From an uncultured Chloroflexia bacterium (lineage in GTDB: Bacteria > Chloroflexota > Anaerolineae > Anaerolineales > UBA11858): a stretch of 64,000 nt of DNA. Each line of letters starts with the position of its first letter. Position 1 is the stretch's first letter. Below the pieces are notes generated by a model. That model did no database searches. It was not told where the DNA came from and saw nothing but the letters and a program-made list of their open reading frames with translations. Below are positions 6,964-50,955 of this stretch, one piece after another. Made by a program: the position numbers and the translations under genes. The DNA is taken from positions 56,712 through 120,711 of the forward strand of contig CAWGOD010000001.1 in assembly GCA_963824175.1 (NCBI GenBank). The letters are read 5' to 3'.

Positions 6964-6972
6964 AAGCTCTCT

Positions 6973-7551: not shown

Positions 7552-7575
7552 AAACGTCCTTGAAGAAGGACGTTT
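7552..7575 (-). terminator. Hairpin downstream of the nuclease gene
   Basis: AAACGTCCTT-GAAG-AAGGACGTTT is a perfect 10-bp stem followed on the minus strand by TTTAAT. Confidence 0.45.
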
Positions 7576-7608
7576 GGCTTCGCCTCTCTTTGGACTTAAG
7601 TCCATACC

Positions 7609-16883: not shown

Positions 16884-18240
<1,357 letters not shown>

Positions 18241-18316
18241 ATTGAGTGGCACAGGGCTTGCAATTAATTAAAGGATACTTAGTAATCGCAGAGAGGAAAG
18301 CAACCAGGCACAAGTT

Positions 18317-20624: not shown

Positions 20625-20628
20625 ATCG

Positions 20629-26655: not shown

Positions 26656-26676
26656 AGAAGAAGGAGGGGATCAGAA

Positions 26677-27279: not shown

Positions 27280-28665
27280 TGGAGCATATTCACTTTATCG
27301 GAATCGGAGGAACTGGTTTGTCCGCAATTGCCACGGTTTTACTGGAACAAGGATACACAGTCAGCGGGTCGGATCTTACTGAATCCAACCTCTTTGAGGC
27401 TGTGCAGAAAGCCGGTGGAACAGTTACCTTGGGCCATTTGGCAGAGAATATATCTGGTGCAGACCTGGTTGTCAGATCTTCAGCAATTCCAGAGAATAAT
27501 GTGGAAGTGCAGGCAGCCCTCGAAGCGGAGATCCCAGTGTTGAAACGTTCTGAATTTCTGGGCCGGATGCTGGTTGATAAAGAGGTTCTTGCTGTGGCTG
27601 GCAGTCATGGAAAAACCACCACAACGTCCATGCTAGTCTGGATTCTCTCTAGCCTGGGAATGGATCCTTCCTTTATTGTCGGCGGTGTTGTGAGAAACCT
27701 TGGCACAAACGCCCGATCAGGTCAAGGGAAATCAGTTTGTGATCGAAGCAGATGAATATGACTATATGTTCTGGGGATTGAACCCGGATCGGGCTGTTAT
27801 TACCAATGTGGAACATGACCATCCTGATATCTTCCCCACTTCCCAATCCTTTGATGAAGCGTTTGAGGGATTTGTGAAGAATTTGAAGCCGGATGGCAGT
27901 CTGGTTCTGTGTGGTGATGACCCTGGCGCGCTGCGATTAAAGAAATTGCTTTCTGCTGATCAGAAGTTAGTCATTTATGGTTCTTCGGGAAATGAACTGG
28001 ATTACTCCGCTGAAAATTTGAAAGTTAATCACAACGCTGGAACCGATTTTGAGATTCGGATTAAGGCGAACGGGCAGGAGAGTACTCTGCCAGTATCACT
28101 CCAGGTCCCTGGAGAACATAACGTCCTGAATGCTCTGGCCGCATTTGTAGTTGCTGATGGACTGGGCCTGGATCGACAGGAGATTGCCAGGCTTTTAGGT
28201 GAATTCCAGGGAAGTGAGCGGAGATTTGATATCCGGGGAGAATACCAGGGTGTATTGATCGTAGATGATTATGCCCACCACCCGACTGAAATTATGAAAA
28301 CCTTGCAGGCCGCTCGGGATGCCTATCCCACCAGAAGGATCTGGGCTGTTTGGCAGCCGCATACTTATTCCCGAACAATAACATTATTTGATAAGTTTTG
28401 TGGAGTCTTTGAAAAGGCGGATCGAGTAGTGGTGCTGGATGTTTTTCCGGCCAGAGAAAGTAAACCGGAAGGCTTCCGAATTTCAGACCTGGTTTCGTCC
28501 ATTCAGCATGACCGGGTACAGCACATTCCGGGGATTGAACAGGCGGTTGAACTATTAAAAGCTGAATTGCAGCCCGCAGATTTGCTGCTGGTATTTACAG
28601 CGGGTGACGCAATTGAAATTAACCAACAGATCGAGAAACACTTGTCTGCCCAGGCAGGATTCTAG
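27276..28665 (+). CDS. murC: UDP-N-acetylmuramate--L-alanine ligase; frame break near 27720
   Basis: IHFIGIGGTGLSAIA, VAGSHGKTTTTSM and DDYAHHPTEI. Confidence 0.9.
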
Positions 28666-35002: not shown

Positions 35003-35021
35003 GAATATTGTCATTAAAAGT

Positions 35022-35050
35022 AAAGCCCTCTCATATTTGGAGGGCTTTTT
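35022..35050 (+). terminator. Rho-independent terminator after nrdR
   Basis: AAAGCCCTC-TCATATTTG-GAGGGCTTTTT. Confidence 0.75.
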
Positions 35051-35060
35051 GTTTTATTTA

Positions 35061-35092
35061 GGGACTGAGTCCTGCTAGCAGGACTCAGTCCC
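35061..35092. repeat. Palindromic element GGGACTGAGTCCTGC-TA-GCAGGACTCAGTCCC (copy 1 of 2); probable terminator of the minus-strand operon
   Basis: Perfect 15-bp arms. A near-identical element is at 47511-47543, and both copies are followed by CCTTAT. Confidence 0.7.
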
Positions 35093-35109
35093 TTATTCAA
35101 TGTCCTTTT

Positions 35110-36346
35110 TTATCCGCAGCCGCCACCAACAGGTGCTCGTTTTAGATCTAGTTCGATTTTCTTTTCATATTCAAAATGATATTCATCATGATCGGGATAG
35201 GCAGCCGGGCAATTCGATCCCAACGCGGCGTCGAATTCATAATGCAATTCTTCTACGCCGGCTTCAGTAGTATCTCCGCATATACCTTCTTCATAGGGTG
35301 TCGAAAAGGTATCCAACCAATTGTTGATCCCGCCGCTGAGGATATACACATTCGGGACCGCCTGGGCGGTCAATGTTTTCCAGACCTCAGTAGAGGTCAC
35401 TTCGTCATTGCTCATCACCACAAACACTGTATTGGCCGGCATGGCAATAAAACTCATCTATTGAATCTGGAATTTCTTCAGGTGTGATATTCTCGGCGTC
35501 AAGCAGGTGGAACAGATTATAGTCGGCTTCGCTTCTGACATCGATCATAACCAGGTTGAGTTTGTGGTCATGAAAAGTATCCAGCAGCTCGCCGGGATGG
35601 ATGTATACTTCTCTGTTTTTTAGGTCATCGCCACGGACTGATTCCAGTTTATTCCAGCGATCTGCAGTGGTGGGTTGGCCGATTATCGCGATTGCGATTG
35701 CTACGATCACCAGCACACCTGCGCCATAGTAGCGGGCTTTGGGGGCTTTTTTGGGATCCTTTTTTCCGTAGATCTTTTCCAGCTGTTCTCCACCCCAGAG
35801 CATGAATACTGCCATCAAAGTTACCAGGATGACAACGATCCCGGTCCGAAGGTTGAAGACATCCATCAAGGTTAATCTGCCGTAGTAGCTGCCGTTGAAG
35901 AAAAACTTGTATAAATCGACAGTCTCACCAAAGATGAAAACACCAACCAGGCCGCCCAAGACAAAGAAGATGCCATCGATCTTTAACGTTGCCAGCGCGA
36001 CCAGAGAAGTGCCGGGACAGAAACCTCCCAGGATGAAACCAACACCCATGATCAATCCGCCAACAATGCCGGACCAAAGATATGTGGGGTTAACCCAGAT
36101 CAGATTGTAGTCCAACAACCCAACTGCAGAACTTAGGAATAGCAGCAGCATACCCACAACGATTGCTGTGAAGAATACTTTGAACACACGCAGATCTTTG
36201 AAGTAGAACTGGGATGCCAGGCTGGGGGAGTGATTAAAACCAGAGATCTCCAGAACATATCCGAATAGGAATCCGATCAATAAAAAGACCAGATATGTTA
36301 GAGGTTTACTAAGTAAGGATTCTAGATGAAGGGGAAAGGGTATCAT
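35110..36346 (-). CDS. YeeE/YedE-family (sulfur-transport domain) membrane protein fused to a rhodanese-homology domain; frame break near 35440
   Basis: GFILGGFCPGTS motif in the TM half. The rhodanese-like LVMIDVRSEADYNLFHLLDAENI ... VFVVMSNDEVTS ... ILSGGINNW has no Cys in the active-site loop. The C-terminus is APVGGGCG. Confidence 0.7.
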
Positions 36347-36358
36347 TATTTTCTCCTA

Positions 36359-36929
36359 TTAATTCCACAGCCTGCGAACAAAATAGGCCAGAGCGTAGGC
36401 ACCACCGAAGATGGAAAACATTACCACCCAGCTGCCGGCGGAAAGTGTGGCTCCACCGGAAAGAGCTTGTCCGGAGGTGCATCCACGAGCCAGGCGAGCG
36501 CCGTAAGTGAAACAGATCCCGCCCAAGAAAGCGAATAACCAGCGGGTCTGATTGGATATATTGGGACCTTTATGAGTTTCAAATTTGGTCCGACCGTGGA
36601 TCACACCGGAAGTGAATCCGCCGATCAATACACCGGCGGTCACGATCACGATCCAGCTGTCCAGAGGATTCAGTTGACCACCAGCCATATTGATCAGATA
36701 GGGGACCTGGTCGATATGTCCGGGAGCGATTAGATCCTCGATGAAGGCAGCAATGCGGCTGAGTACCGCCGGAAGCACCCAATCCATTACCGGTGATGAA
36801 ATAAGAGGCAAATAGAACCATGCCCAATAAAACACCACCAAGATAAGGATTCGCATAAGGCTTAGAAGGCCTGTTGAACAGATCCTTCAAACGAAATTTC
36901 TGTTTTTCTGGTTTTTGATTTTCTGTCAT
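36359..36929 (-). CDS. YeeE/YedE-family membrane protein (half-size partner); frame break near 36780
   Basis: N-terminus PYLGGVLLGMVLFASYFITGNGLGASGG and C-terminal half ARGCTSGQALSGGATLSAGSW. Confidence 0.7.
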
Positions 36930-37003
36930 TTCTAGTCTCTCTTTTCTAGGCGGAGTTTATAATCTGCCATTTTTTTACTTGGAAAATACAATTCGATTGA
37001 GAT

Positions 37004-37603
37004 TAACTCTCAATGTCCTCCCAACCGGTGATCATAGCTTCAATGCTGGAAACAGCAGTATGACCGGTTGTAGTCAGGTAGATATGCAGGATCAGGAAAG
37101 CTGCAAACAGCCAGGCAATGATGGTATGGAAGGGAGCCAGGATGGGCAATCCTCCCAGGCCTTTCAGCCAGACCAGGCCAGCGCTGTAAACCCCACATCA
37201 GGGCGCCAGTGATGCCCTGAAGAGGTAAGAGCACATTCAGCAGCCCGAAATAGGTGATCTGCTGGAGAGGATTCAACTTCTTGTCAGTTGTTTTTTCAAA
37301 GGGGTGATGTTCACCTTTGAAGATACCCAGCAGGTAGTATTTGATCTGTACAAAAGTGCGGTCAAAGAAACCACGCGGTCGAGGAATATACTGCTGGATC
37401 TCTCCTGTAGCTAGATGGAAGAACAAGGACAGGAAAGCATTGACAGCAAGAATTGCTGCGATGATGTTGTGGACCAGGACCATATTCCTGAAGTTCATAA
37501 AAGCGAACGAGTCGGGCCTGTGGATTATGAATCCGGTCAGCAGCAGGATCACAATCGCCGCTGTTTGCAACCAGTGCCACAATCGCTCATAAGCCCCGTA
37601 CAT
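37004..37603 (-). CDS. Cytochrome b (Ni/Fe-hydrogenase / PhsC-type, PF01292-like) membrane subunit; frame break near 37150
   Basis: YERLWHWLQTAAIVILLLTGFIIH. The C-terminal piece PFHTIIAWLFAAFLILHIYLTTTGH...ITGWEDIES is in another frame, ending at stop 37004-37006. Confidence 0.7.
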
Positions 37604-39740
37604 ATAAATTTTCTTTGTTGGTTTTTGATGAGGCAGGATTGCGGGAAGAAAAATAGATTCTTAATCCGCCATGGGTCATCACACCCAGGAAAACAACAGC
37701 ACACAAACCTAAACCGATCCAATCCAGCCAGGCAAGGCGATTGTGGCCAAAGACATACAGCGAATCGGCCGCTGCTGCTGGATAATAGAAAATCTCTCCA
37801 TCATCATTAAATTTGATCTCACCTTCTAGATTTCTCTCGGTGCCCGATACAAAAGCTGGCAAGTTACCTCCAGGGGAGGCGGCAGCTAGTTTGATCGGTT
37901 GTGTGATCCGGGAATCATCACCATGGCAAGCAGTGCAGTCATCCAGGGCCCAATCTGCGCTGGCAACATCATGATTAATGCTGTAAGGCTGAATCTCTCC
38001 CGTGATCCGGGGATTGGAAAGCCCCAGTAGAGCCAATCTGTCTCGTACAAAATCTTCTTTGGCCTGGGAATCGATCACCATTTCATCGACGGTCAAATCT
38101 CCATCTTTATTTTCATCAAATCTCAGGATAATTCCTGGGTGATAACCGCCATTTTCGTAATAGGCGGCCTGCAGATCGGCCAGGATCACAGGACGGGGAG
38201 GATCACCGTAGACCCAGAACCAGGTTGTGATCAGGTTATGGGGCGCTAATCTCATGTTGCCGTCAATATCTGGGCTGGGGATTAATACTGGTTCAAAACC
38301 AACCAGTAAGGAACCCATTGTGTTTACATCACCTTCGGCTCCACGGCATTCTCGCCGGGGAAGGTCTCCGGGCAGCAGTACTGTCCAGTCATGGACCTGG
38401 TTGCCTGATGAATACATTTGAGGAATGTGGCAGGACTCACAGCTCAGAACGTCCAGATGGCTTTCGAGATACGGCAGCCAGTCATGGGTGCTGTCTGACT
38501 GTATGGCAGGACTCACAGGTCCTCATGGTGTCATTGAGTTCAGGAGCTACGATACTCTGGGCGCTGTTTCCCCGAGCAAATTGGTGGAGAGGTTTTTCCA
38601 GGTATTCACCGATCTCGACCCGGCGAGGATCGAACAGCAGGTGATCTGGCCTGGTTGTCTCTGATTCCTGGTAATAGAGTGGGTTGTTAATCGAATAATG
38701 GCAATCCACACAGTTCAATAAACGTTCTGCGTGTACATCCCAGGATCGATTTAGAGTTTCTTTATTGGCCAGGTTCATCCCTGAATCGGACATCTTTTGG
38801 GGTGAGATGATCTGTCCAGTCGTGATCGTACTCCAGCGTTCAGGGGCGCAGCCCAGTGTAACCAGGGGATCCTCAACATTATCATGCACAAGACCATGAC
38901 ATGCTCCGCAGTTGTTATTGGTTGGATCCTGGATCTGGATCGCTTCTGGAAGGATTTCCATGTCTTCGTCAAATAAGCTTTCATTCCAGATGTAGGAATC
39001 CCCGCTCATAGATAACAATACCTGAGCCGATCAGAGTGGAGGTGTTGACCCATTTGAAATTCCCACTTTGCAGGGCGTCTGCCCGAGCATTATTGTCTGG
39101 ACTCGGGATATGGCACAGGAAGCAGTTCATTTCAACTGAGCCAGATTTATCCCAATCCCAACGTTCCAACTTACCAGTATCCGGGTTGACGATATTGGTT
39201 TCCAAGCTGGTGCTGCTGTAAGGTAGATCAGCCAGAAGTTCTCCGTTTTTGGCATATATGAGCAGGACCGCCTCCGATATGGCGTAATCCATAGATCTGG
39301 ATCCATGCTGGAGTGGTCAGGTCTATCCTGTCATCACCCTGGGGTGAGAGGTAGCGATACTCAATTGAGTTCCAGGAACCAAACACTCCTGGGGAGGTAT
39401 CCCAGGGTCTTTCTGTAACTGTTTCACCTGGTTGGGAGATATCATTTAACCCAACGCTGACATGGTAACTGTGGTCAGCAATGAATGCTGTGTCATGACA
39501 TGCCCCACAGGTATTCATTGTGGAAATTGGATTGCCTGTTTCCAAGACATTATCCCCTGCCTCATCGAGGAAAGGGAAAGAGGGGTGCAGGGGAGAGGCT
39601 TGTTCGGTTTTTTCCTGTCCCGGGCTCGCCCAGACAACTCCCTGGGTTAGAAGGACAGCACCCAGGATGATCAGGAAAGAAATTGCTGTTATGAGGAGCA
39701 ATTTATTATATTTATTGAGTCGTGTTATTTGATTGCCCAT
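37587..39740 (-). CDS. Multiheme c-type cytochrome (at least seven CxxCH) with an N-terminal signal/anchor and a C-terminal TM segment; three frame breaks
   Basis: CxxCH motifs seen in order: CGACH, CFLCH, CGACH, CVDCH, CESCH, CESCH, CTACH. Four ORF pieces (39228-39740, 38981-39292, 38482-39018, 37587-38516) tile the region. Its 3' end overlaps the cytochrome b start by 17 nt. Confidence 0.75.
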
Positions 39741-39757
39741 ATCAACTGCATCCTTTA

Positions 39758-41210
39758 TTAGGGTCGATAACTATTGGACTGGAAACGGCCGCCCCAATCG
39801 ATCGGATCACCGTAATATCCCAGTGATTCCCAATCCATCCTGCCTTCAGGACCGTGGCATTGATCACAAGTCAGAGCTTCCGTAGCTGCTCTGACCATGT
39901 GCGTGGTTGGCCAATACATATCCGTTTCAGTGAAATCCATATTGGCCGCTGTAATCCAGGCCGGTGATATCTGCACCGAGCTGAAGGGCTAAATCCCAAT
40001 CGAATTCGGTCCAGAAACCTCCCTCGCCAAAAGTTTTTGGCTGGAGAAGGATATTATTTACAGTGTCATAAGGTTGTTTGGCAGTATGAACTTTGAAGGG
40101 AAAAACTTGGAAGATTGATCATGTGATATCACCTGCTGGCAGGTTTATGTGCACCAGCTGATCCGGATCGATCATATCTCCCAGGATATAACGTTCGGCT
40201 ACGCCGCCGTTGTACCACATGTAAACCGGAGTGAAATTGCCTTCGTATACAAAACTGCCTTTGATCTTCAAATAAGTATGAACGCTTTCCTCAATCTCAT
40301 CGCTGCCCGCTGTTGACCAATCCCAGTACATCTTGGTTGCATCCCTGGTTGCCGCATTTGGAATGTGGCAGGTCTGGCAAGCAACTGACTCAATATGGGC
40401 ATTGATGCGGTCATCCTCGTGCAAGCCTTCGTCATGGCAATCAATGCAGTAGGTCTGGTTTTCATTATCCAGGCTGACGGAGATCGATCGTCCCATAATG
40501 TTGTGGCTTTCTGTCTGGTGGCAATCAGTGCACATAAAGTCATGTTCACCCATATGGATATCCACATTGGAAGGCGGGAAGTAGAGGGTTTCATCCAGAT
40601 CACCATGTTTAACCGCATTACCTCCGCCGCCATTAAAGTGGCAGCTGCCGCAGTTTTCACGGGTTGGAGCGGCGACGCTCTGGGCGACTTCCAGCAGGTC
40701 TACACCTTCAACCGGTATGCCGGCCAGGCCTTTCACGTATGTGCCGGTATTATCATGGCATGCCAGGCAATCGACAAATTCTTCCTGATTGAAGTCAAAA
40801 TTAGCATCTTCCCATCCATAACCTGCATGACAGGAGGTGCAGCTGGGCCAGTTGCCCTGAATTCCGATACAGAAATTGTTAATCGAGTTCTTTTTCCCGA
40901 CTGTGACAGTGTTATCTCTACCTTCTATCTGATAGGGTTTGCTTTCCCAGGTCCAATGTGCTGTTGCCATGATTTCCTGAGCTGAATCTTCGTGGCATTC
41001 CAGGCAGGCCCTGGTGACTTCTTGACCGGTTTCAAAAGGGCCCTCAATGATCGCTGTGTGATCGGTGTGGGGGACTTTTAAAGGCACATTATCCCAGGGA
41101 TCCGAACTGATCGGCTTTTCTCCCCGGGGGAAGAAGATCACGATTGGGATCACAATTATAAAAAGGACAAAAACGGCACCAAATATCCAGTTGAATTTGG
41201 ATGGTTTCAT
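39758..41210 (-). CDS. Tetrathionate-reductase-family octaheme c-type cytochrome (OTR family); two frame breaks (about 40120 and 39960)
   Basis: Eight CxxCH motifs: CLECH, CTSCH, CLACH, CGSCH, CTDCH, CIDCH, CQTCH, CDQCH. Strings such as ATAHWTWES, NNFCIGIQGNWPSCTSCH, NCGSCHFNGGGGNAVKHGD and VHTAKQPYD match my recollection of the OTR family. There is an N-terminal TM anchor. Confidence 0.75.
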
Positions 41211-41213
41211 AGA

Positions 41214-41568
41214 CTACCTCTCATTGGATTGGTTATGTTTAATTAGATCAGCTTGCTGTGATAACTGGTCCAGCATAACCTCGCGGAGTATGTCCAGAGC
41301 TTGAATAAAACGTTTATCAGCCAGAGAATAGATCACCTGGGCCCCATCGCGCTGTGCCTGGATCAATCCCCTCTCGCGGAGGACTTTTAAGTGGCGTGAA
41401 GCCGCAGATTGACTGATACCCACGATCTCTGCCAGATTGTTCACATTTTGGGGTGTTTCAGCGACAGCATATAATTAATAATATCCGATTAGGTTCTGAA
41501 ATTGCGGAGCAGATCCTGGCATGCAGCTGATTGATTTCTTGGGCAAGGGGATTATTGTTCATAGACAT
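41214..41568 (-). CDS. ArsR/SmtB-family transcriptional regulator; frame break near 41450
   Basis: LHARICSAISEPNRILLI followed by NVNNLAEIVGISQSAASRHLKVLRERGLIQAQRDGAQVIYSL. Confidence 0.75.
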
Positions 41569-41791
41569 ATGTACATATAGGAATATATAGGCTTGTGAAG
41601 ATTATAACAACTTGGAAATAAAGAGATAGTGACAAATGTAACATGTCTAGCCCAGGGGGTTGTGACAGTTTGTGTGACATATGTGAAATAAAAAGTCCAG
41701 ATTTCAGTATGGGAGTGGGAAAACGAGGGGAGGATTGTTGGAATAGACGATCGGTTTATTAGTTTTTGCCCATCTTTAAAACAAAGATATC

Positions 41792-42688
41792 TTAACCTTC
41801 GAGGGCGGTGGTTATGAAATCCCAGAAGGCATCTCTTGCTGCAGTGGTCAATTGAGTTTTGTCCCTGGCAATATATAAACCCTGTTTGATATTGATATCT
41901 TTAATTGGAACAGCCACAGTTTCGCTGATCGCGGATGAAATTGTGGTGGAGCTAAAACTAAGACCCAAACCTTTGTTTACAGAGAGGGCAATAGCTTCGG
42001 CATTGTCCAGGGTCAGGAAAGAATCCAGCTGAAGGAGGGACAGGTTTTTGGATGCCAGAGCCTCATTTACTTTCATATAGGTTTTTGTATTCGCTGCGGG
42101 AAGAATAAATTTTTCTCCTAGCAGTTCCTCAACTTCGATGAATTCGCGTTTTGCCCAGGGATGATCTTTGGGTGTGATCAGCATAATTTCATCCGTCAGC
42201 AGATGTTGAGACTTGGAAGCAGGGCTCGACTATATTTTCAAGATTTGTGAATAAGAAGTGAATATCTCCACTACGAAGGGTATTCAAGAGGAAAATTACA
42301 GGTATCAGTCTGGCAGGCGATTGTCACTTCCGGGATACAAATCGTGGAATTGAGAAAAGAATTCCGGTAGTTTATATCTTCCAGTGAGAGCGTTGCATCT
42401 GATGCTTATCCTGCCTTTGATATGCCCCTTTAGGGATGACATGGCTTCATTGATCCTGGTGCTTTGTTTAACGAACTGCTGGGCCATTGGGATCAATACC
42501 CGACCGGCATCCGAAAGGATCAAAGATCTTCCCTGTCTGATAAAAAGCACCTCTTCAAAGTGTTTTTCCAGGGACCGAATATGCTGACTGACACTTGGTT
42601 GACTCATATGCAGCCGTTCAGCAGCCTGGGTGAAATTCAAAGTATCTGCGGCGACCAGAAATATGTTAAGTTGGTGGGCATCTAACAT
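41792..42688 (-). pseudogene. LysR-family transcriptional regulator with at least three frame breaks between 42185 and 42330
   Basis: N-terminal HTH LNIFLVAADTLNFTQAAERLHMSQPSVSQHIRSLEKHF (ORF 42305-42742) and C-terminal effector domain (ORF 41792-42184). The linking segment is readable only by switching frames. Confidence 0.65.
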
Positions 42689-42837
42689 GGGATTCTCTAG
42701 GAGGATACTTGATAATTTATTAGTAATCATTATTATATCCAAAAGAAATTATTATGGGTAATCGATTCTGACCCTCTAATTTCAATTTCTAAAACTAGAA
42801 TAAACAGTCCTGTTTGAAAAATCATCCTTTCTGATAA

Positions 42838-42901: not shown

Positions 42902-44134
42902 TTAATGTGCTGCCTCTTCGTCTTTGGGGTAGATTGGCAGGTACTTTATGCCAAAACTGAAAGCAAGCAAAGCGTAAGCGATGATACCGATGGAAACTAT
43001 GATCTCATTCCAGGTAGGCAGGTAGGAAACTGTGATCAAATTGCCAAGTACACCCGGGGACCACTGTGGCGGGGCGACCAATCCAGAGAGGGTTACATTC
43101 CAGCGATTTACTGTTACTCCTGCGATGATTGCTCCCAGCGCCAGCATCGTATAGCGATCATTTTTCCTGAAGTTTGCATTTAGCAGGATGATGGCCGGTA
43201 CGAATGCCGCCCAACACGATCTCAATCCACCAGAAGGTTCGGGTATAAGGAGTGGTTGATTGCAGTAATGCCAGAGCCTCGGTTGTACCGGGAGAAGTGC
43301 TGTAATAGGAAGTAGCCGCCCAATCCCAGATCTTTAGATAAAGGTAGGCCAGAAGGGCATATCCAGCGAAGCGGGAGATATCATACTGCAGTTCCCGGCT
43401 GATAATTTGCCGTCTGTTCAGTTTGCCGACGAAAATGGTTAACAACAGGGTCATGGATATCCCTCCGGCAATAGCGGAGAGAATGAACATCACCGGCAGG
43501 GAAGGTTTGTACCAGATAGCTCTTCCTGACAACACGCCGTATGTCGCTCCCAGGGAGGATTGATGGAGCAGGGATAATCCCAATCCGATAGCGGCAAAAA
43601 CAGGTGATGCCTTGTGGATCAGATCACCATACTTACGAAGATTAGGCCAGCGGTCAAAATATTTACCCTCGAGCAGGATCGGTAAGAATTCCAGCACAAG
43701 CACGATGGAATAAAGGATCACACACCAGGTGATTTCCCATAAAACAGAGTGAACATTCCAGTAAACCAGGGGATGCCAGAACCTGTCTGGCCGGCCGATA
43801 TCCATGGCCAGGGCAAGCATGGCGGATGTATACCCAAGGAATCCCACAAAAACAGCGGCACGGGCGATGGGTTGGTATTTTTTGATCCTGAACAGGTAAA
43901 CAATTGCCGAGAATGTGAACGCACCGGCTCCTGTTGCGATAGAACTCAGGTCCTGGGTGATCCACAAGACCCCAGGGGACCTGGTCAGACAAACCAGTCA
44001 CATGCAAACCTTTGACAAAAACCCGGATGGCGCCGAATACTACCAACGGCGAGCATCAAACCAAGAACACCGATCCAGATCCACCAGGCACGCTCTCGGC
44101 CTTCTTTAGGAATGGAAAGATCAAATTTAAACAT
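42902..44134 (-). CDS. NrfD/PsrC-family polytopic membrane quinone-interacting subunit; about three frame breaks
   Basis: MFKFDLSIPKEGRERAWWIWIGVLGLML..., GLSDQVPWGL, and MDIGRPDRFWHPLVYWNVHSVLWEITWCV. The ATG at 44134 directly abuts the upstream stop (TAGATG). Confidence 0.75.
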
Positions 44135-44978
44135 CTATACTTCCTCCTTTTCAGGGCGGACATAATGAACATTGGGTTTTGTCCCAAAATCCTCCCTCAG
44201 GCGGAAGGTTTCATTATCTTTAACAAAAATAGAAACCGGACTTTCTGGATCATTATGATCACCAAAAACACGGGCGTTCACAGGACAGATATTCACACAT
44301 GCTGGTGTGGCTTCCCGGTCAACTCCCGGCGTTAATCCCTGGGCCAGCCCGCGATCGATTCTGTGACTGCAGAAGGTACATTTTTCCACCACGCCCCGGG
44401 ACCGGCGCTCAATTTCCGGCGATCCCCAGGTGGGTTGATAGGGATTTTCTTTTTTGGATAACTTCCCAGTTAAACCGCCTGACATCATAAGGGCAGGCAA
44501 CTTCGCAGTAGCGGCAGCCAATGCAGCGTTTGTAGTCCATGGTGACGATGCCATCTTTGCGCTTCCAGGTCGCACCGACTGGACAGACTTTCACGCAGGG
44601 AGCTTCTTCGCAATGCAGACAAGGGTCTGGTCATAAAAAACTCTGTTCCGCTTTCAGTACGCTCGGGATGTCCCACATTCCAGCGCATGTCATCATCAGG
44701 AACATCATTGGTTGCCTGGCAAGCCCAGAGGCAGTACTGGCAGCCGATGCATTTGCTGAGGTCGATAGCCATACACCAGGAATGTTCGGATTTCCCTTCT
44801 TCGCCATGGGTTTTTTCGCCAATACCTTGGATCGCATCTGGGGACAGGGGTCCCGATGTGATCAGCTGAGTGACCAGCGCTGCTGCACCTGTCGACCCGG
44901 CGATCTGTAAAAATTCCTTTCGTGATACCAGGGATTTCTTATTAGTAGATTTTCCAGAGATCCCTTTTTAGAGATCAT
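44135..44978 (-). CDS. Periplasmic four-cluster [4Fe-4S] protein (PsrB/NrfC/HybA type) with a Tat-like signal; about three frame breaks
   Basis: [17 protein letters not shown]; [11 protein letters not shown]; [14 protein letters not shown]; [12 protein letters not shown]; CTFCSHR...[18 protein letters not shown] precedes the ATG at 44978. Confidence 0.75.
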
Positions 44979-46001
44979 TTTCCTCTTCCTCCTCATCTGT
45001 CCGACTGCGAAGATTCTGGCCCACGAACCAGGCGGTGCTTCCGCCCAGGACTAGGCCGATCACAGCACCCTGGAATAAATTGCTTACCGGCTGCTGGCCA
45101 GGGCAGTCTCCAGGGCCTGGATCTGCTGGTTGGGATATCTGTCGATTGTTTACCGAATGGTTTCTGATCAGCGGCTGGGCGCCTTCGTCCTTTCTTGCCC
45201 TTCATCTGTGTCCTGCGCATGGAATGTTGCATCAGCAGCCCCATTTTCATAACCGGGGAGAGTAAAACCTGCATGTAATGCGTCTGTATGGCAGGCAACA
45301 CAAGTTTGAGGTGAAATCGTGAAACGCATGCCCAGTCGGTACAATGCCATCTTCAGGGCTAACATCAGGTGGAATTACTAGGGCATGGCAATCCACGCAT
45401 CCGATATTTTGCTGAACGTGAAGGTCGTTCAGATAATCGCCCATTCCTTCCCGGTGGCAGTTGATGCATAAATCATCGGGATTATCAAATAAGTGGTTTC
45501 TGGCTGTGGGGATCATGGCAGTCCATGCAGTCTACATCTCCAGAGGCGTGGCCTGTACTGCGCCATTCACTCAAAGTTGTTGTATGGCAGGAACCGCAGT
45601 AATAAGTATCAACGATGGTTGGTACCACCTTGATCGGGGTGATTAGTTGTGACAGTACCGTGACAAGATTGGCAAGAAACACCCTCATGTTTCATATTCT
45701 CCAGTGGATGAAATGTAATTCGTGGTATGGCAGGCCAGGCAGGTATCCGGAGTGCCCAAACCAACCCACTGCTCCTGGAAAACAGGATCATCATAGGCAT
45801 GGGCATGGGGGCTTGGAGACCAAACTCCCTGCCACATCTCCGATGACATTTTACACAATCATTGTCAGTGAGAATTTCTTCAGGGGGATCATCACCTTGA
45901 GAATTGGGTGCTGCCGAGACAATTCCAGTGAACAGGAACATGGCAAGTAATCCAATAATTAGGCCGGATACAAGGGCAGGGGAATACTTTCTTTTAGTCA
46001 T
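44968..46001 (-). CDS. Octaheme c-type cytochrome with signal peptide and C-terminal TM helix; at least six frame breaks
   Basis: CxxCH motifs found by frame-hopping: CVKCH, CLACH, CQSCH, CGSCH, CMDCH, CINCH, CVDCH, CVACH. The tail GAVIGLVLGGSTAWFVG...EEEEENDL has a stop that overlaps the next gene's start by 11 nt. Confidence 0.65.
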
Positions 46002-46266: not shown

Positions 46267-46398
46267 GAATCCCCGTTGTATCTTTTGGGAGCCTTTATAT
46301 TGATTGACATCCTTTATCTCAATGAGCTGGAAGATAGCGGTGGGTTTGGCGGCTGGGTAGATGCAGGTTACCCGGTGGTTGAATACGCTATGCCCTAG
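46267..46398 (+). pseudogene. Remnant of a rhodanese-domain gene (C-terminal approx. 30-40 codons only)
   Basis: The open frame with no start codon reads ...LYLNELEDSGGFGGWVDAGYPVVEYAMP*, which resembles the C-terminal GG..W..AGxP box of rhodaneses. It is followed by its own terminator. Confidence 0.35.
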
Positions 46399-46533: not shown

Positions 46534-47487
46534 ATGGTAGATTTGCTGCGTATCGAAACCTTTTTGCATGCAGCCGAGACCTTGAATTTCTCGGAAGCTG
46601 CCAGGAACCTCCATTTATCCCAGCCTACTATCAGCCATCATATTAAAGCTCTCGAGAATGACCTGGGAGTGATTCTGTTTGAACGCCAGGGCTCTTCCAT
46701 CAAACTTACCGATGCAGGCAAATTACTGGTTCCCTGGGCGAGGAGAGTGATGCGAGATTCCATAGAAATGCAAGAGATGATGGAATCGTTAAAGGAAGGC
46801 ATGGCTGGGAATCTCCAAATTGCTTGCAGCACAACGGCTGGAAAGTACGTTCTTCCCCATCTGGCAGCTAGGTTTTCTATCAGGCACCCTAATGTTCGAA
46901 CTAAATTGCTGCGCTGCACTCCAGCCTCGGTTGCTATCAACTTATTGGAAGGAGAAGCTAATCTGGGTGTGGTCAGTTATGAGATTCCCGGAAAGGAAAT
47001 CGAATTGCAGGAATTCTTCCATGATTTGATCGCAGTTATCGTACCAAGAAACCACGCATTTGTGGCCAGGGATAAGATCCTCCCCGAAGATTTATTAGGA
47101 GAATCGATCATCATGCGGGAAGATACATCCGGCACAAGGAAAATCGTTCTGTCTGAACTTGCCAAACATGATATCAGCCTGGATGATTTGGACAACTTTA
47201 TGGAGGTTGGCAATGCTGAGGCCATCGTCCGTACAGTAGCAGCTGGTTATGGGATTTCCTTTGTATCCAAACTGGCGGCTGCATGTGCTATTGAACGCGG
47301 TAATGTAATTGCCATCCCGGTAGATGGGATAAACCTGGTACGTACTATCTATATGGTTCGGAAACGGCTTAAAGAGTCTCATCGACCGGCGGATGCGTTC
47401 TGGGGATTCATCCATGATCCAACCAATAAGGATCTGATTGAATTGGCCAGCAGGGGAGATTTGTCCTATACTATTCGAGATCTATAG
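46534..47487 (+). CDS. LysR-family transcriptional regulator (intact), divergent from the octaheme-FeS-NrfD operon
   Basis: 317-aa ORF with IETFLHAAETLNFSEAARNLHLSQPTISHHIKALENDLG plus an effector domain. Confidence 0.9.
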   Translation: MVDLLRIETFLHAAETLNFSEAARNLHLSQPTISHHIKALENDLGVILFERQGSSIKLTDAGKLLVPWARRVMRDSIEMQEMMESLKEGMAGNLQIACSTTAGKYVLPHLAARFSIRHPNVRTKLLRCTPASVAINLLEGEANLGVVSYEIPGKEIELQEFFHDLIAVIVPRNHAFVARDKILPEDLLGESIIMREDTSGTRKIVLSELAKHDISLDDLDNFMEVGNAEAIVRTVAAGYGISFVSKLAAACAIERGNVIAIPVDGINLVRTIYMVRKRLKESHRPADAFWGFIHDPTNKDLIELASRGDLSYTIRDL

Positions 47488-47578: not shown

Positions 47579-47938
47579 TTAGAAACTAAAGGTAATAGTG
47601 GCGTCTTCGATTTCCATCAAGAAGGGTGGGGCTTTGGTGATCTTGATCCTGTCATCGCGCAGATCTTTGGGATCGATACCTTTGTTTTCAAGTGCCAGTT
47701 CGCACAGGATCATTTCAGCGCCAAGATCCATGATCGTATCAAATAACTCAACAGGATTGGGTAGACCCTTGGGGGTGCCCAGTGTTTCCAGCTCGCCTTT
47801 CAACATCCAGCGGGCGCCGGCGGGACAAATAAACACCACAACTTCATTATCAAGTGCCAGGCCTGAAGACGACATGATCAGGGTGGGCATGATGTTGGCA
47901 GGTCCATCGCCATTGCAGGTAATTGCCATTTTAGCCAT
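47579..47938 (-). CDS. DsrE/DsrF-like (COG2210-type) small sulfur-relay protein
   Basis: 119-aa ORF. VVVFICPAGARWMLKG and MILCELALENKGI are paralogous to the ORF at 49343-49717. Confidence 0.65.
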   Translation of the reverse strand: MAKMAITCNGDGPANIMPTLIMSSSGLALDNEVVVFICPAGARWMLKGELETLGTPKGLPNPVELFDTIMDLGAEMILCELALENKGIDPKDLRDDRIKITKAPPFLMEIEDATITFSF

Positions 47939-48007
47939 TTAGTTAGCTCCTTTTGTTATAGTACAAAGAGTCCGGGAATTTTCATCCCGGACTCTATTCA
48001 TTAATTC

Positions 48008-49015
48008 TTAGTTATCTTTTTTCTGGGGCAGAACAAACATCACATAGGATGCCGCCCACGCGCCCAGGAAGATCGATACACCAGCTAAGATGGATCCCAG
48101 GGAAAGCTGGGGAATACCACTCAGCAGATGGCCGATATTGCAGCCACCAGAGGTTACTGCGCCAAATCCCATCAAAAGACCGCCTGCGAAGGTTTGAAGC
48201 AGGACAAGAGGTTTGGGCATACGGAATTTGAATTCCTTGGAGATCAGAGCGGCAACAAAGCCTCCGACAACAATACCGATGATTAGCATTCCGATCCAAT
48301 TAAAGGTTGCACCTGTGAATATAACCTGGACGATGTTGATCCAACCTGCGGTGATGCCAAGTGGATAGTTACGGCCAGCAGCGGCGGACAGCGGGAAGGC
48401 CAGAATGCCAACCAGGCCGACCAAGATACCTGTGTTCAGCCAGCCCCAACCCGGGTCAGCTTCACATTCTTCATTCTTGGATTTGGCAACAAAGTACCAA
48501 ACCACAACAGCGATCAAAGCAAGGATGATCGCCAGGGTGGTGTAGTCCATACCCAGGATTCCATGCAAGGTCAAAGCTTTGTCATCTGCTCCGGAGATTG
48601 TTGTGGCAGCTTGCAGGTTGGCTTTGAAGGGTTTCAGGAACCCAGAAGCGGTGATATAACCAGCTGTGGCCAGGCCGAGAACTGCAGTCATTGAACCAAC
48701 CATACCTTCACCAGTACGGTAAGTGATGCCGCTGGCACATCCGCCAGCCAGAACCATACCGATACCAAATATAAAGCTACCCAGCAGGTTTGCTCCCCAC
48801 CAGAAAGGTTTGGGGTTGATGGCAATGGCGCCAACTGCATCCATAAGCGCAAATCCGACCAATTCAACCAACAGTGCGGCGAATACAGTTTTCAGGAGGA
48901 CGTTGTCCTGCAGCAGGATAGCGTCTCTGAAGGCTGAGTTCATGCAGAAACGTCCCCTCTGCAGAACAAAACCAAACAAAACACCTACAAATAATCCAGT
49001 TAATACAGCTTCCAT
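48008..49015 (-). CDS. yeeE: YeeE/YedE-family thiosulfate-type transporter (full length)
   Basis: 335-aa multi-TM ORF with three Cys contexts: RGRFCMNSAF, AGGCASGITYRTGEG and SGGCNIGHLLSG. Confidence 0.8.
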   Translation of the reverse strand: MEAVLTGLFVGVLFGFVLQRGRFCMNSAFRDAILLQDNVLLKTVFAALLVELVGFALMDAVGAIAINPKPFWWGANLLGSFIFGIGMVLAGGCASGITYRTGEGMVGSMTAVLGLATAGYITASGFLKPFKANLQAATTISGADDKALTLHGILGMDYTTLAIILALIAVVVWYFVAKSKNEECEADPGWGWLNTGILVGLVGILAFPLSAAAGRNYPLGITAGWINIVQVIFTGATFNWIGMLIIGIVVGGFVAALISKEFKFRMPKPLVLLQTFAGGLLMGFGAVTSGGCNIGHLLSGIPQLSLGSILAGVSIFLGAWAASYVMFVLPQKKDN

Positions 49016-49045
49016 CTCTCTCTCCTTGACTAATTTTTATTGATA

Positions 49046-49294
49046 CTATTTCAATCCATGTGCTTCGATCAGCATACGGTGGTTGGGTCCATCCAATTGT
49101 TCAACTTCGATCAGTTTATGGCCTTGTTTTTTGAGGTTGCGCGGAATCCTTTCCACTGAAAGTGGATAATCCAGCAGCACTTCCAGGACTTCACCCTTTT
49201 CCATTTTTTTCAGTGTGGTCATGGTGTTCATGTCAGGGTAAGGGCAGATCTTTCCACAGACATCCAGGGTTTTAGTGGGGGATACTTCGCTCAT
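49046..49294 (-). CDS. TusA/YeeD-family sulfur carrier protein
   Basis: 82-aa ORF with LDVCGKICPYP (the CPxP motif of TusA/SirA-like proteins). It lies immediately upstream of yeeE. Confidence 0.8.
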   Translation of the reverse strand: MSEVSPTKTLDVCGKICPYPDMNTMTTLKKMEKGEVLEVLLDYPLSVERIPRNLKKQGHKLIEVEQLDGPNHRMLIEAHGLK

Positions 49295-49342
49295 TCGACT
49301 AACTCTCCTTTTTTAATGGATGATGAATTTGAATCCCAATCA

Positions 49343-49717
49343 TTAATAACTAAAGGACATTTTGGCGCCTTCCGCTTCAAAGAGGAATGTTGAGGCCATC
49401 ATGACTTCCACACCTTCAACCAGATCTTCCTCTTTCATGTCCCAGATCGGCAAACCGAGTTCACAGAGGATCACCCGACCGTCCAGGACCTGGATGGCAT
49501 CAAAAAGATCTACAGGATCTGGTTGGCCCTTGAGGTTTTGGTACTTTTCCAGGGCGCCTTTCTTGAGGATCTTTGCGCCGCCTGGCTGGATGAATAACAG
49601 TACTTCATCACCTGTGGCAGCTACAGCTGCGCTCATAACCAGAGCAGCCATGACACTTTGTTCGTTATCGTTGTTCAGTACAACTACAATCTTCTCGGTC
49701 TGGAATTCTTCAGTCAT
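49343..49717 (-). CDS. DsrE/DsrF-like (COG2210-type) small sulfur-relay protein
   Basis: 124-aa ORF with VLLFIQPGGAKILKKG and VILCELGLPIWDM. Confidence 0.65.
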   Translation of the reverse strand: MTEEFQTEKIVVVLNNDNEQSVMAALVMSAAVAATGDEVLLFIQPGGAKILKKGALEKYQNLKGQPDPVDLFDAIQVLDGRVILCELGLPIWDMKEEDLVEGVEVMMASTFLFEAEGAKMSFSY

Positions 49718-50951: not shown

Positions 50952-50955
50952 ATTG

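Follow-up and report, generated by a model that had tools for sequence, protein, structure and literature searches.

A conserved five-gene cassette of Anaerolineae encodes an OTR-family octahaem cytochrome, a heptahaem c/cytochrome b fusion and a split YeeE transporter with a rhodanese-like domain

The stretch of DNA analysed here (64,000 nt from an uncultured Chloroflexia bacterium; hereafter the window) contains a cassette of five genes, encoded on one strand in the order ArsR–OTR–c/b fusion–YeeE–YeeE/rhodanese. A preliminary description of the same DNA had placed an ArsR gene, an octahaem cytochrome, a multihaem/cytochrome b pair and two YeeE-family genes at 35110–41568. All of these components are present there as open reading frames with profile matches, but every gene is interrupted by indels in the window sequence. 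The features of the locus, in window coordinates, are:

35110–41568, minus strand: the five-gene cassette
41629–41643, minus strand: TGTKA-N6-TCAC site (CRP/FNR-type consensus), conserved in 11 aligned upstream regions
41601–41609, minus strand: extended -10 promoter element TGTTATAAT, conserved in relatives, the single match in the window
41567–41578, no strand assigned: perfect 12-bp palindrome ATATGTACATAT, just 5′ of the ArsR start codon
41214–41562, minus strand: ArsR/SmtB-family regulator, ~115 aa (77 bits on NF033788, cutoff 55)
39758–41210, minus strand: OTR-family octahaem cytochrome c, 483 aa, with a predicted uncleaved N-terminal membrane anchor (TIGR04315, 1SP3, CxxCH count)
37737–39740, minus strand: N-terminal part of the fusion, with a signal peptide (VWA|SP) ahead of a ~640-aa heptahaem c domain, extracytoplasmic by predicted topology (seven CxxCH)
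37003–37736, minus strand: C-terminal part of the fusion, a dihaem cytochrome b domain with five helices that resembles PhsC (PF01292, NF011582, Foldseek)
36359–36929, minus strand: YeeE C-terminal half (H8–H13 equivalent), 189 aa (PF04143, 78.5 bits, profile 167–309 of 310)
35681–36346, minus strand: YeeE N-terminal half (H1–H7 equivalent) plus an extra transmembrane helix, aa 204–222 (PF04143, 61.3 bits, profile 11–190 of 310)
35110–35680, minus strand: rhodanese-like domain, predicted extracytoplasmic, in the same gene as the YeeE N-terminal half (PF00581, 48 bits)
35053–35100, no strand assigned: 24-nt inverted repeat between the cassette and the convergent nrdR
35022–35048, plus strand: second hairpin with a T-tail

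Around 11 single-base indels occur in 6.4 kb of the cassette (nine 1-nt insertions and one insertion/deletion pair), affecting each gene. Insertions lie at ~41475 in the ArsR gene, at ~39260, ~39013 and ~38499 in the c domain and ~37628 and ~37165 in the b domain of the fusion, at ~36764 in the YeeE C-terminal half and at ~35452 in the gene of the rhodanese-like domain. The OTR gene has an extra base at ~39935 and carries the insertion/deletion pair, in which an extra T at ~40121 creates an in-frame TGA (40119–40121) and a base is missing ~25 nt downstream. A selenocysteine reading of this TGA was ruled out, the codon being an artefact of the pair. These breaks are denser than those in the adjacent murC–nrdR region (3 in 7.2 kb), as might be expected if the cassette were a pseudogene cluster decaying in the source organism with all of its genes frameshifted. 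We regard such decay as highly improbable. Essential division and cell-wall genes of the window (ftsI, murF, mraY, murD, ftsW, murG and murC) are split likewise, as is an NrfD/Fe-S module, which argues that the indels in the cassette are sequence errors. Moreover, the breaks are single-base indels with no further in-frame stop codon, the proteins are, indels aside, 92–97% identical to intact orthologues, and the long-read assembly of a relative (L005) has similar breaks in other genes.

The first gene of the cassette encodes the ArsR-type regulator, which has a single invariant cysteine (Cys18, in 59 sequences) and is closest to the sulfur-/metal-sensing models TsoR and BigR. The palindrome ATATGTACATAT is unique in the window (0 expected) and its core is conserved in relatives; we propose it as a candidate ArsR operator. 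Further upstream, TGTTATAAT overlaps the only promoter-like site 5′ of ArsR in a promoter scan. The window has a single copy of the TGTKA-N6-TCAC site, where 0.04 would be expected; placed relative to the -10 element, its centre would lie at about -41.5 with respect to the predicted start of transcription. The gaps between the cassette genes measure 3–75 nt and the one conserved promoter region lies 5′ of ArsR, a layout that points to a single conserved transcription unit whose genes would be co-transcribed. The inverted repeat at 35053–35100 possibly marks the end of this transcript.

The second gene was proposed to encode a membrane-anchored OTR-family cytochrome with eight haems, an assignment that the corrected protein bears out: it matches the whole TIGR04315 profile with 567.9 bits (cutoff 375; the N-terminal fragment by itself scores 418.6 bits), aligns with the Shewanella oneidensis OTR structure 1SP3 over residues 50–471 (E=3e-148) and contains eight CxxCH motifs. 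The equivalents of Lys56 (the haem-2 ligand) and the active-site Cys64 are invariant in 71 OTR sequences. The Shewanella enzyme had been described as soluble and periplasmic with a debated substrate, in agreement with published work, in which it is fed by CymA via STC (PMC4484225). In contrast, the cassette OTR is predicted to keep an uncleaved N-terminal helix, in which W8, G11 and P22 are invariant, and it is always encoded beside a c+b quinol module of its own, together with a split YeeE and a domain with a cysteine arm. Family membership leaves the substrate unfixed, since Shewanella OTR is efficient on nitrite and hydroxylamine too (Atkinson 2007, as cited in PMC4484225 and PMC7887784).

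Downstream of OTR, the predicted multihaem/cytochrome b pair is present with both of its parts, but as one protein of ~910 aa (37003–39740) rather than as two genes. A single c+b protein of this size is found in 120 of 120 homologues among the matches listed, as well as in all 80 genome loci examined. The 17-nt overlap that had been reported between the two genes exists literally in the raw sequence (37587–37603), but is an artefact of the extra base at ~37628 within one reading frame. The c domain contains seven CxxCH motifs, consistent with the earlier count of at least seven haems. By profile comparison it is a distant relative of OTR: hhalign aligns it with OTR haems 4–7 (probability 95.9%, E=5.6e-9), and it has weak matches to TIGR04314 and TIGR04315. 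In its haem-rich region, the AlphaFold2 model of the fusion is of low quality (pLDDT <50 for residues 304–442). The b domain scores 88.3 bits on PF01292, the family originally named for it, and over residues 670–905 (within the C-terminal 240 aa of the fusion) matches the PhsC model NF011582 at nearly full length, although with 131 bits it remains below the equivalog cutoff of 204. The four histidines that serve as its haem ligands show no variation across 59 sequences and align with Escherichia coli HyaC, and its predicted fold resembles those of FdnI and HyaC, with matches to 1kqf_C (TM-score 0.59) and 6g94_A (TM-score 0.61). Together with its constant position next to OTR, this PhsC/HyaC/FdnI-type dihaem domain suggests a dedicated quinol-oxidising module, as the preliminary description had put forward. 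Unlike the b subunits of that group, it is fused to a multihaem c domain instead of serving a molybdo- or NiFe-enzyme.

The resemblance to CbcL of Geobacter sulfurreducens, also pointed out before, holds as an analogy of architecture as described, presumably not as orthology. Both are single polypeptides with an extracytoplasmic multihaem c part and a membrane dihaem b part of the HydC/FdnI type, and both are presumed quinol oxidases, but the c domain of CbcL measures ~29 kDa and binds nine haems (PMC9129911), compared with seven in ~640 aa here. Furthermore, the c domain of the fusion contains beta-rich inserts and is distantly related to OTR and MmcA, and whereas CbcL feeds extracellular electron transfer via PpcA, the fusion is paired with a terminal reductase.

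The last two genes belong to the YeeE family, as had been claimed (PF04143 matches at 36359–36929 and 35110–36346), but the description of the second had missed an extra helix, a rhodanese-like domain and a C-terminal cysteine. Jointly, the two halves span the whole of the PF04143 profile, and both essential cysteines are retained: Cys151 of the C-terminal half, invariant in 75 sequences, equals StYeeE Cys293, and the invariant Cys110 of the N-terminal half matches StYeeE Cys91 (topology and essential cysteines after PMC7449682). One essential cysteine in each half is also the arrangement of PmpB/PmpA (PMC11582611). Set against the YeeE/TsuA–YeeD thiosulfate uptake system, PmpAB and SoxT1A/SoxT1B, the N-terminal-half gene keeps H7 and adds an eighth helix and a predicted outward-facing rhodanese-like domain, and the C22 equivalent is missing; there is no YeeD/TusA partner in the cassette, a separate YeeE–TusA pair lying 6 kb off. 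The rhodanese-like domain lacks the catalytic cysteine (MSNDE loop; 62 sequences), but ends in a GGCG tail in 62 of 62 sequences (codons 35113–35124), extended to GGCGG in one of them and in a stand-alone homologue with an N-terminal anchor in the relative L087. Hydropathy, StYeeE homology and this stand-alone homologue predict that the domain lies outside the cytoplasm, with a weak positive-inside signal around the last helix (4.5 vs 3.5 K+R). The sulfur carrier SoxY likewise carries a GGCGG swinging arm at its C-terminus, on an immunoglobulin-like fold. As in SoxY, an invariant cysteine sits in a glycine-rich extreme C-terminus, and the domain that bears it has a predicted extracytoplasmic location next to a haem enzyme of thiosulfate-type chemistry. 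The scaffold here is rhodanese-like, however, and SoxZ, SoxB and SoxXA are not found in the cassette; the likeness is confined to the motif.

The YeeE halves score about equally weakly on the TsuA and YedE models and far under the TsuA cutoffs, with YeeE1 slightly better on selenium YedE/FdhT than on TsuA (32.9 vs 30.7 bits). One could imagine that OTR acts on a different chalcogen oxyanion, be it selenite, tellurite or sulfite, and that YeeE/YedE imports what the reduction yields, such as selenium destined for selenoproteins. Weak matches to the ExtN/ExtO cytochromes of selenite/tellurite operons and to the TsoR/TsoB selenoprotein-operon models point the same way, and the OTR family includes proteins with a selenoprotein annotation (PMC13188914). 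We nevertheless consider this very unlikely, as the YedE/FdhT, ExtN/ExtO and TsoR/TsoB matches all fall far under their cutoffs and no selenium-utilisation genes were seen adjoining the cassette.

The fusion protein is encoded by 325 species genomes, nearly all of them Anaerolineae. In the 80 species-level genome loci that we examined, gene order and strand are identical wherever the contig extends far enough, with OTR adjoining the fusion gene in 76 and upstream DNA lacking in the other four. The reverse test used metagenome contigs with the YeeE–rhodanese gene as anchor instead of the fusion protein; contigs with enough flank contained YeeE1 (60/60), the fusion (32/32), OTR (29/29) and ArsR (20/24). 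OTR thus co-occurs with cytochrome b and YeeE in both data sets, and this arrangement is far beyond chance. The genomic neighbourhoods around the cassette differ. Relatives at 33–45% identity have the same gene set, fused or separate, and distant relatives, one of them a member of the Latescibacterota, encode the same parts as separate genes. These alternating versions provide Rosetta-stone evidence for the c/b and YeeE/rhodanese partnerships.

A sulfur link had been suspected from the YeeE genes. It is strengthened by the split YeeE and rhodanese-like domain being obligate neighbours in both test directions, and by a DsrE–TusA–YeeE–DsrE cluster at 47.5–49.7 kb of the window, 6 kb from the cassette; in another relative (L006), DsrC and DsrE adjoin the cassette. 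The same electron chain could instead serve nitrogen chemistry, whether ammonification or detoxification. The anchored OTR would then reduce nitrite or hydroxylamine, and YeeE/rhodanese would be functionally unrelated passengers or handlers of side reactions. Metagenomic studies list otr under tetrathionate and nitrite reduction alike (PMC8359478), and in L087 NrfA-like and NrfH-like cytochromes follow 3′ of the cassette. We think this unlikely: whichever gene serves as anchor, YeeE and the rhodanese-like domain are constant neighbours at the loci tested, even at identities as low as 33%, which makes the passenger-gene idea hard to uphold, the neighbouring genes have to do with sulfur relay, and the regulator is of the ArsR type, nearest to TsoR/BigR and not to a nitrogen-oxide sensor.

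On balance, we favour a membrane respiratory module that passes electrons from menaquinol via OTR to an external sulfur compound and is coupled to a sulfur-handling device, with an electron path drawn from homology and predicted topology. The dihaem b domain of the fusion, of PhsC/HyaC type, would oxidise menaquinol and send the electrons over its two b haems and on through the seven c haems in the extracytoplasmic domain. They would then enter the eight-haem OTR, which a conserved N-terminal helix of its own would tether to the membrane on the outer side, perhaps within a physical complex, and there reduce a soluble sulfur compound at the lysine-ligated haem 2; the likeliest reaction is probably tetrathionate to thiosulfate. 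The two YeeE halves would form a PmpAB/TsuA-like channel. Outside, the invariant C-terminal cysteine in its Gly-rich tail, the sole reactive residue of the rhodanese-like domain, may bind the product or tetrathionate and pass sulfur or thiosulfate to the channel, for capture, import or signalling. Cytoplasmic sulfur could enter assimilation or a relay (such as the nearby DsrE/TusA cluster) and could lift repression by the single-Cys ArsR-type regulator. A similar pairing is known from SoxT1B–SoxR, where signalling through the ArsR-type repressor SoxR requires a YeeE-like protein (PMC11582611). The cassette in this way gives the long-debated OTR enzyme a testable physiological context. Counting against this reading, one relative (L003) has ArsR–OTR only, with the rest of the cassette missing.

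With E0′ at ~+198 mV for tetrathionate/thiosulfate and ~-74 mV for menaquinone, tetrathionate reduction by menaquinol is exergonic. PhsC-type b domains, however, have their quinol site near the cytoplasmic side and would spend proton-motive force instead of generating it, which places the energetic benefit of the favoured reading in doubt. Electrons might also flow in the oxidative direction, from a reduced sulfur species (possibly held on the Cys arm as on SoxY) oxidised at OTR, over the c and b haems to the quinone pool. FdnI/HyaC-type b subunits do normally pass electrons to quinone, but the thiosulfate/tetrathionate couple, at ~+198 mV, is unable to reduce menaquinone, the expected quinone of Anaerolineae. 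Likewise, the GGCG(G) tail recalls the SoxY carrier arm of oxidative sulfur metabolism, and YeeE-like SoxT and ArsR-type repressors occur in sulfur-oxidation regulons (PMC11582611), but the cassette holds no SoxB, SoxZ or SoxXA, and the nearest b-domain model, PhsC, is part of a reductase. We give the oxidative direction little credence.

The favoured reductive module has parallels in other systems. In Wolinella succinogenes, the sulfite reductase system MccACD combines an octahaem enzyme with a dedicated membrane quinol dehydrogenase. It shares with the cassette a sulfur-oxyanion-type octahaem reductase encoded with its own quinol module, but the enzyme families differ (MccA vs OTR), as do the quinol modules (Fe-S plus NrfD-type MccC/D vs the c+b fusion), and Mcc is not known to include a transporter or carrier-arm part. 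A description of the cassette was not found in the literature searched. A related published arrangement is an Otr–cytochrome b561 cluster in the Ignavibacteriae MAG Ch128a, for which quinol was proposed as the electron source of OTR (PMC7509429). As in the cassette, OTR lies beside a PF01292 cytochrome b there, but the report comprises one sentence on one MAG, which leaves conservation aside and mentions neither a multihaem linker nor YeeE, a rhodanese or a regulator.

The minus-strand stretch 35110-41568 encodes five genes: an ArsR/SmtB regulator, an octahaem cytochrome c of the tetrathionate-reductase family (OTR), a multihaem cytochrome c leading into a PF01292 cytochrome b, and two PF04143 (YeeE/YedE) proteins. 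PF01292, PF04143 and PF00581 were already detected in scans of the uncorrected fragments. Proteins were then rebuilt by frameshift-aware alignment, guided by the intact orthologues of L001 (GCA_045888315.1), a syntenic Anaerolineales MAG. Together, fragment scans and rebuilt proteins establish that the gene set and families named in the preliminary description are real, with corrections that mostly concern the reading frames. Every gene of this cassette carries single-base indels, comprising nine 1-nt insertions and one insertion/deletion pair. The latter produces an in-frame TGA at 40119-40121 in the OTR gene. In nine relatives, the extra T is absent and one more base is present ~25 nt downstream, so this codon is neither a true stop nor a selenocysteine codon. 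Selenocysteine is further ruled out by the repaired reading DITDQSSKFFPFK, which agrees with DITDNSSKLFPFK of these relatives.

Decay of the cassette into pseudogenes was ruled out as well, because essential dcw genes in the window are broken in the same way. The genes rsmH, ftsI, murF, mraY, murD, ftsW, murG and murC (17562-28665, plus strand) are each frameshift-split into overlapping ORFs, and the NrfD/Fe-S genes upstream of the cassette are split too. As a cell would not survive with all of these essential genes broken, the indels are assembly errors. The region at 28.7-35 kb (murB, ddl, ftsA, ftsZ, nrdR) is almost free of frameshifts, which means that error density varies strongly along the contig of 417,703 bp; there are 3 events in 7.2 kb from murC to nrdR versus about 11 in the 6.4 kb of the cassette. 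Indels aside, DNA identity of the window to GCA_029940435.1 is 93.4% over 13.6 kb, and at the protein level the cassette matches intact orthologues with 92-97% identity. A related long-read MAG (MFD09964.bin.2.149, contig_7910; loci L005/L012) has split NrfD and MurB genes as well, so frameshift noise is common in this set of assemblies. Annotation of the window therefore calls for caution, as its genes resemble pseudogenes only through single-base assembly errors.

The corrected product of 39758-41210 is a member of the OTR family, scoring 567.9 bits against TIGR04315 (cutoff 375) over profile positions 2-440 of 440. Its 363-aa N-terminal fragment alone passes the same cutoff with 418.6 bits, and the protein matches Shewanella OTR (structure 1SP3) with E=3e-148. 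The eight haems counted in the preliminary description are retained after frameshift correction, with CxxCH motifs at residues 69, 124, 148, 187, 227, 255, 278 and 449; among 71 sequences, 15 of the 16 motif cysteines are conserved at 100% and one at 99%. The segment GKKNSINNFC aligns to 1SP3 residues 55-64, and its invariant K105 and C114 are the equivalents of Lys56 (the haem-2 ligand) and Cys64. By this family criterion, K105 is the predicted lysine ligand of the catalytic haem 2. The N-terminal hydrophobic helix has no AXA cleavage site and contains invariant W8, G11 and P22, which argues for a retained membrane anchor formed by this uncleaved helix. In contrast, Shewanella OTR is soluble and supplied via CymA/STC (PMC4484225).

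The multihaem c and cytochrome b parts had been described as two genes overlapping by 17 nt (37587-37603). This overlap is present in the raw sequence, but it is an artefact of one additional base at about 37628. The two parts form a single protein of ~910 aa in L001 and in each of the 120 homologues listed, and the ORF is continuous in all relatives of this clade, for which two overlapping genes are thus ruled out. In NCBI the fusion is named no more than 'cytochrome b/b6 domain-containing protein', and its JGI name is 'thiosulfate reductase cytochrome b subunit'. A variable N-terminus and an AXA-like site (VWA↓SP) open the protein; in the predicted topology they precede ~640 extracytoplasmic residues, then one transmembrane helix and a b domain of four helices. 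Seven CxxCH motifs were counted in the corrected c domain, in line with the earlier estimate of at least seven haems. The b domain scores 88.3 bits against PF01292 (gathering threshold 30.1). Its H721, H756, H870 and H884 (in WHW, VHN, FHT and LHI) are invariant in 59 sequences and align with histidines of E. coli HyaC, which by family criterion makes them the predicted ligands of two b haems. The last 240 residues match positions 19-245 of the 248 in the PhsC model NF011582 with 131.2 bits, short of the equivalog cutoff of 204 bits, and we classify the domain from its sequence as PhsC-like, not PhsC.

The AF2 model of the fusion (mean pLDDT 68) is usable for the b domain and beta-rich parts only. 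Its best structural matches are FdnI (1kqf_C, TM-score 0.59) and HyaC (6g94_A, 0.61), while pLDDT drops below 50 at residues 304-442 and Foldseek matches 1SP3 only weakly (probability 0.35). The central four-haem stretch of the c domain and OTR haems 4-7 are homologous (probability 95.9% in hhalign), there are weak matches to the MmcA model, and a PDB profile search with the fusion alignment returned nothing at E<=0.01. The preliminary description had likened the arrangement to CbcL (GSU0274), a nine-haem c+b fusion with a role in extracellular electron transfer (PMC9129911). The architecture holds, in one protein rather than a pair: extracytoplasmic multihaem c and membrane dihaem b form a single polypeptide in both cases, and being genuinely fused brings our protein closer to CbcL than had been supposed. 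However, it has seven haems in a ~640-aa domain, whereas CbcL has nine in a domain of 28.9 kDa (PMC9129911). The compact periplasmic domain with nine c-type haems that characterizes CbcL is thus not found, and the fusion appears to be an architectural analogue of CbcL only.

The two YeeE genes encode the halves of one transporter fold. An N-terminal half (encoded within 35110-36346) and a C-terminal half (YeeE1, 36359-36929) score 61.3 and 78.5 bits, respectively, against PF04143 (threshold 27) and jointly span the profile (11-190 and 167-309). Their invariant Cys110 and Cys151 are the equivalents of C91 and C293 in loops LB and LD, which are essential in StYeeE (PMC7449682), and PmpB/PmpA show the same type of split (Li et al., PMC11582611). 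Both halves remain at 25-31 bits against the TsuA equivalogs NF052577/NF041049 (cutoffs 400/645 bits). Once a frameshift at about 35452 is corrected, the second YeeE gene is seen to continue into a rhodanese-like domain at residues 253-344 (PF00581, 48 bits with a threshold of 22.2), hence YeeE-rhodanese. The catalytic Cys is absent from the rhodanese loop, which reads (V/L/I)MSNDE in the 62 sequences. Outside the membrane part, the sole invariant Cys is that of a C-terminal GGCG, which is terminal in 62/62 sequences and appears as GGCG or GGCGG in homologues at 33-45% identity.

This tail probably faces outwards. In StYeeE, the N-terminus lies outside and the C-terminus inside (PMC7449682); by homology, the N-terminal half ends inside after H7, where the loop has a mean of 4.5 K+R, and one more hydrophobic helix (aa 204-222) then places the rhodanese-like domain on the outside. 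The domain is accordingly predicted, by homology, to be extracytoplasmic. A stand-alone rhodanese-like protein at L087, a metagenomic locus with unfused genes, would have the same orientation through a single N-terminal anchor and ends in GGCGG. A query with the rhodanese and tail domain retrieved only 145 proteins, mostly contig-end pieces of the same fusion, and no new architectures. We take the GGCG tail to resemble the carrier arm of SoxY. The likeness is functional only and lies in the shared GGCG/GGCGG motif, as the cassette domain is rhodanese-like and not of the SoxY fold, and no SoxZ is encoded. The external Cys arm is possibly a new element of the cassette.

A scan with the fusion alignment, covering one genome per species, matched 325 genomes, and the best 80 loci of these 325 were examined. 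These 80 are almost all from Anaerolineae (Anaerolineales, Ardenticatenaceae, Promineifilaceae, Ca. Amarolinea and Ca. Desulfolinea); the two labels that look out of place, Nitrosomonadaceae and Zixiibacteriota, may reflect errors in binning. OTR lies directly upstream of the fusion in 76 of the 80, and the other four contigs begin within the fusion gene. YeeE1 follows the fusion in 77/80 loci and YeeE-rhodanese in 72/80, and ArsR precedes OTR in 65/80. Nearly all absences of YeeE1 or YeeE-rhodanese are at contig ends; four loci (L025, L040, L042, L085) have no complete YeeE-rhodanese ORF despite 140-340 nt of DNA past the YeeE1 match. In the reverse test, a metagenome scan anchored on YeeE-rhodanese, the flanks that extended far enough contained YeeE1 in 60/60 cases, the fusion in 32/32, OTR in 29/29 and ArsR in 20/24. 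The recurrence of these neighbours in both directions bears out the co-occurrence of OTR with cytochrome b and YeeE. The cassette stands beside nrdR-ftsZ only in the closest relatives and at other sites elsewhere (e.g. L006), so it travels as a unit. At the same nrdR-ftsZ site, L003 (GCA_964481465.1, 9645-12225) contains ArsR-OTR without fusion or YeeE genes, a natural 'OTR-only' variant.

When the C-terminal half of the haem domain was compared with 1.84 billion representative proteins, 398 clusters were found (178 at E<1e-30), with lengths that point to fused and unfused forms. Inspection of six contigs from five of these clusters showed OTR upstream in every contig reaching that far. At L087 (JGI 3300033149, 865-9586), OTR, a 699-aa multihaem protein, a 204-aa cytochrome b, the YeeE halves and a 218-aa rhodanese-like protein are separate genes. 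The multihaem protein is also unfused at L090, annotated as Ca. Latescibacterota, while L091 is on a 1.3-Mb contig with an LptD-like gene and has no ArsR. Across a broad evolutionary span the same parts are found both joined and separate, which counts as Rosetta-stone evidence for a partnership of c with b and of YeeE with the rhodanese-like domain. The L087 locus also has genes for NrfA-like and NrfH-like cytochromes after the cassette, and a CGGC-domain protein replaces ArsR upstream.

The genes are closely spaced, with gaps of 3, 17, about 75 and 12 nt, and a scan for minus-strand terminators inside the cassette gave no convincing candidate, only weak matches near shuffle expectation. The first gene encodes an ArsR/SmtB regulator (NF033788, 77 bits against a cutoff of 55) with a single invariant Cys at position 18; it does not reach the BigR and TsoR equivalog cutoffs. 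The following elements flank the cassette, the first three being conserved in relatives:

41629-41643, upstream of ArsR: CRP/FNR-like element TGTGA-N6-TCAC (consensus TGTKA-N6-TCAC)
41601-41609, upstream of ArsR: extended -10 element TGTTATAAT
41567-41578, at the ArsR start: perfect 12-bp palindrome ATATGTACATAT
35053-35100, between the convergent YeeE-rhodanese and nrdR genes: 24-nt inverted repeat, no loop
35022-35048, plus strand: GC-rich hairpin with a T-tail, adjoining the 35053-35100 repeat (hairpin pair 35013-35100)

Assuming a transcription start ~7 nt past the -10 element, the TGTGA-N6-TCAC site is centred at about -41.5. Such spacing would fit a class II promoter of the CRP/FNR type that has a repressor site downstream of it. 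In L001, a gene for a cNMP-binding protein (CRP family) is found ~9.5 kb upstream of the cassette.

The interpretation put forward in the preliminary description finds support at the level of conserved genomic linkage and of domain logic, while substrate, direction and complex formation are inferred. Menaquinol would be oxidised at the b domain of the fusion, and electrons would move along the two b haems and then the seven c haems to reach the anchored OTR, where an external sulfur compound would be reduced. The same chain might instead serve nitrite or hydroxylamine reduction, as in vitro reduction by OTR, whose structure dates from 2004, extends to nitrite and hydroxylamine as well as tetrathionate. 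Other rival readings are an electron chain in the oxidative direction and selenium or tellurium chemistry. Family membership, the sulfur-specific partners and thermodynamics (potentials of about +198 mV versus about -74 mV) favour tetrathionate, which is the best substrate candidate on these grounds. A PhsC-type b domain may render the step electrogenic in the dissipative direction, which would be affordable with an exergonic acceptor. The outward Cys arm and the YeeE channel would then capture or import thiosulfate or sulfane sulfur. This sulfur may supply a DsrE-TusA-YeeE-DsrE relay encoded 6 kb away or, alternatively, may pass a signal to the ArsR repressor, in the manner of SoxT1B with SoxR. 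Tentatively, and we consider this rather doubtful, the GGCG Cys might act as a SoxY-like arm at the mouth of YeeE, presenting Cys-bound sulfur (e.g. Cys-S-thiosulfonate from tetrathionate) to OTR for reductive release or to the YeeE cysteine relay. The cassette would then be a hitherto undescribed, carrier-based and quinol-driven sulfur reductase/importer, and the substrate of this OTR clade would be carrier-bound rather than a free ion.

The cassette combines known kinds of components: an OTR enzyme, a CbcL-like quinol module and a split YeeE. To our knowledge, Shewanella OTR has no dedicated partners. For an enzyme of long-unclear physiological role, the cassette supplies fixed ones, namely a c+b cytochrome of its own for quinol oxidation, the split YeeE, a Cys-arm domain on the outside and an ArsR with a single Cys. 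The set is conserved in Anaerolineae, a class plentiful in sediments, sludge and hydrothermal systems, with at least 325 species-level genomes, and is also found beyond that class. The OTR question thereby becomes experimentally tractable in terms of substrate, carrier adducts and quinol coupling, and we suggest that 'otr' counts in Chloroflexota metagenomes mark a complete membrane-bound pathway for sulfur intermediates. Among quinol-to-periplasm electron modules, the cassette would be a new architecture. A pair of Otr and cytochrome b561 has been mentioned once, for an Ignavibacteriae MAG (PMC7509429), and otr has been listed without context in MAGs of Anaerolineae and Ca. Desulfolinea (PMC7887784, PMC8359478). 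Our literature search found only such otr listings and this one remark, and no description of the five-gene cassette, the YeeE link or the GGCG-tailed rhodanese-like domain.

Further upstream, the window encodes a second quinone-interacting module at 42902-46001 (minus strand), consisting of a multihaem cytochrome c, a 4Fe-4S protein and an NrfD-type subunit. It is heavily frameshifted, immediately precedes the LysR and ArsR genes and is found only in the closest cassette relatives (L010-L018, L032). The LysR gene between this module and the cassette (41792-42742, minus strand) consists of two ORFs (42305-42742 and 41792-42184), probably split by another indel; a second LysR gene (46534-47487) is intact. 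In relatives, a 596-aa exported multi-rhodanese-repeat protein and a 377-aa multihaem cytochrome are encoded between the NrfD module and LysR (L001, 1716-4692). Only a ~33-aa remnant of the rhodanese protein is left in the window (46297-46395), so both genes have been lost here. Beyond it, a canonical cytoplasmic sulfur-relay/uptake cluster (47579-49717, minus strand) encodes DsrE-like, TusA-like, YeeE and second DsrE-like proteins. Individual genes of this cluster and those after it are:

49046-49294, minus strand: TusA-like protein with a CPxP motif
48008-49015, minus strand: full-length YeeE (PF04143, 263 bits)
49776-50993: Fe-S protein, after the DsrE-TusA-YeeE-DsrE cluster
51481-53148: FAD-dependent oxidoreductase, after the Fe-S protein
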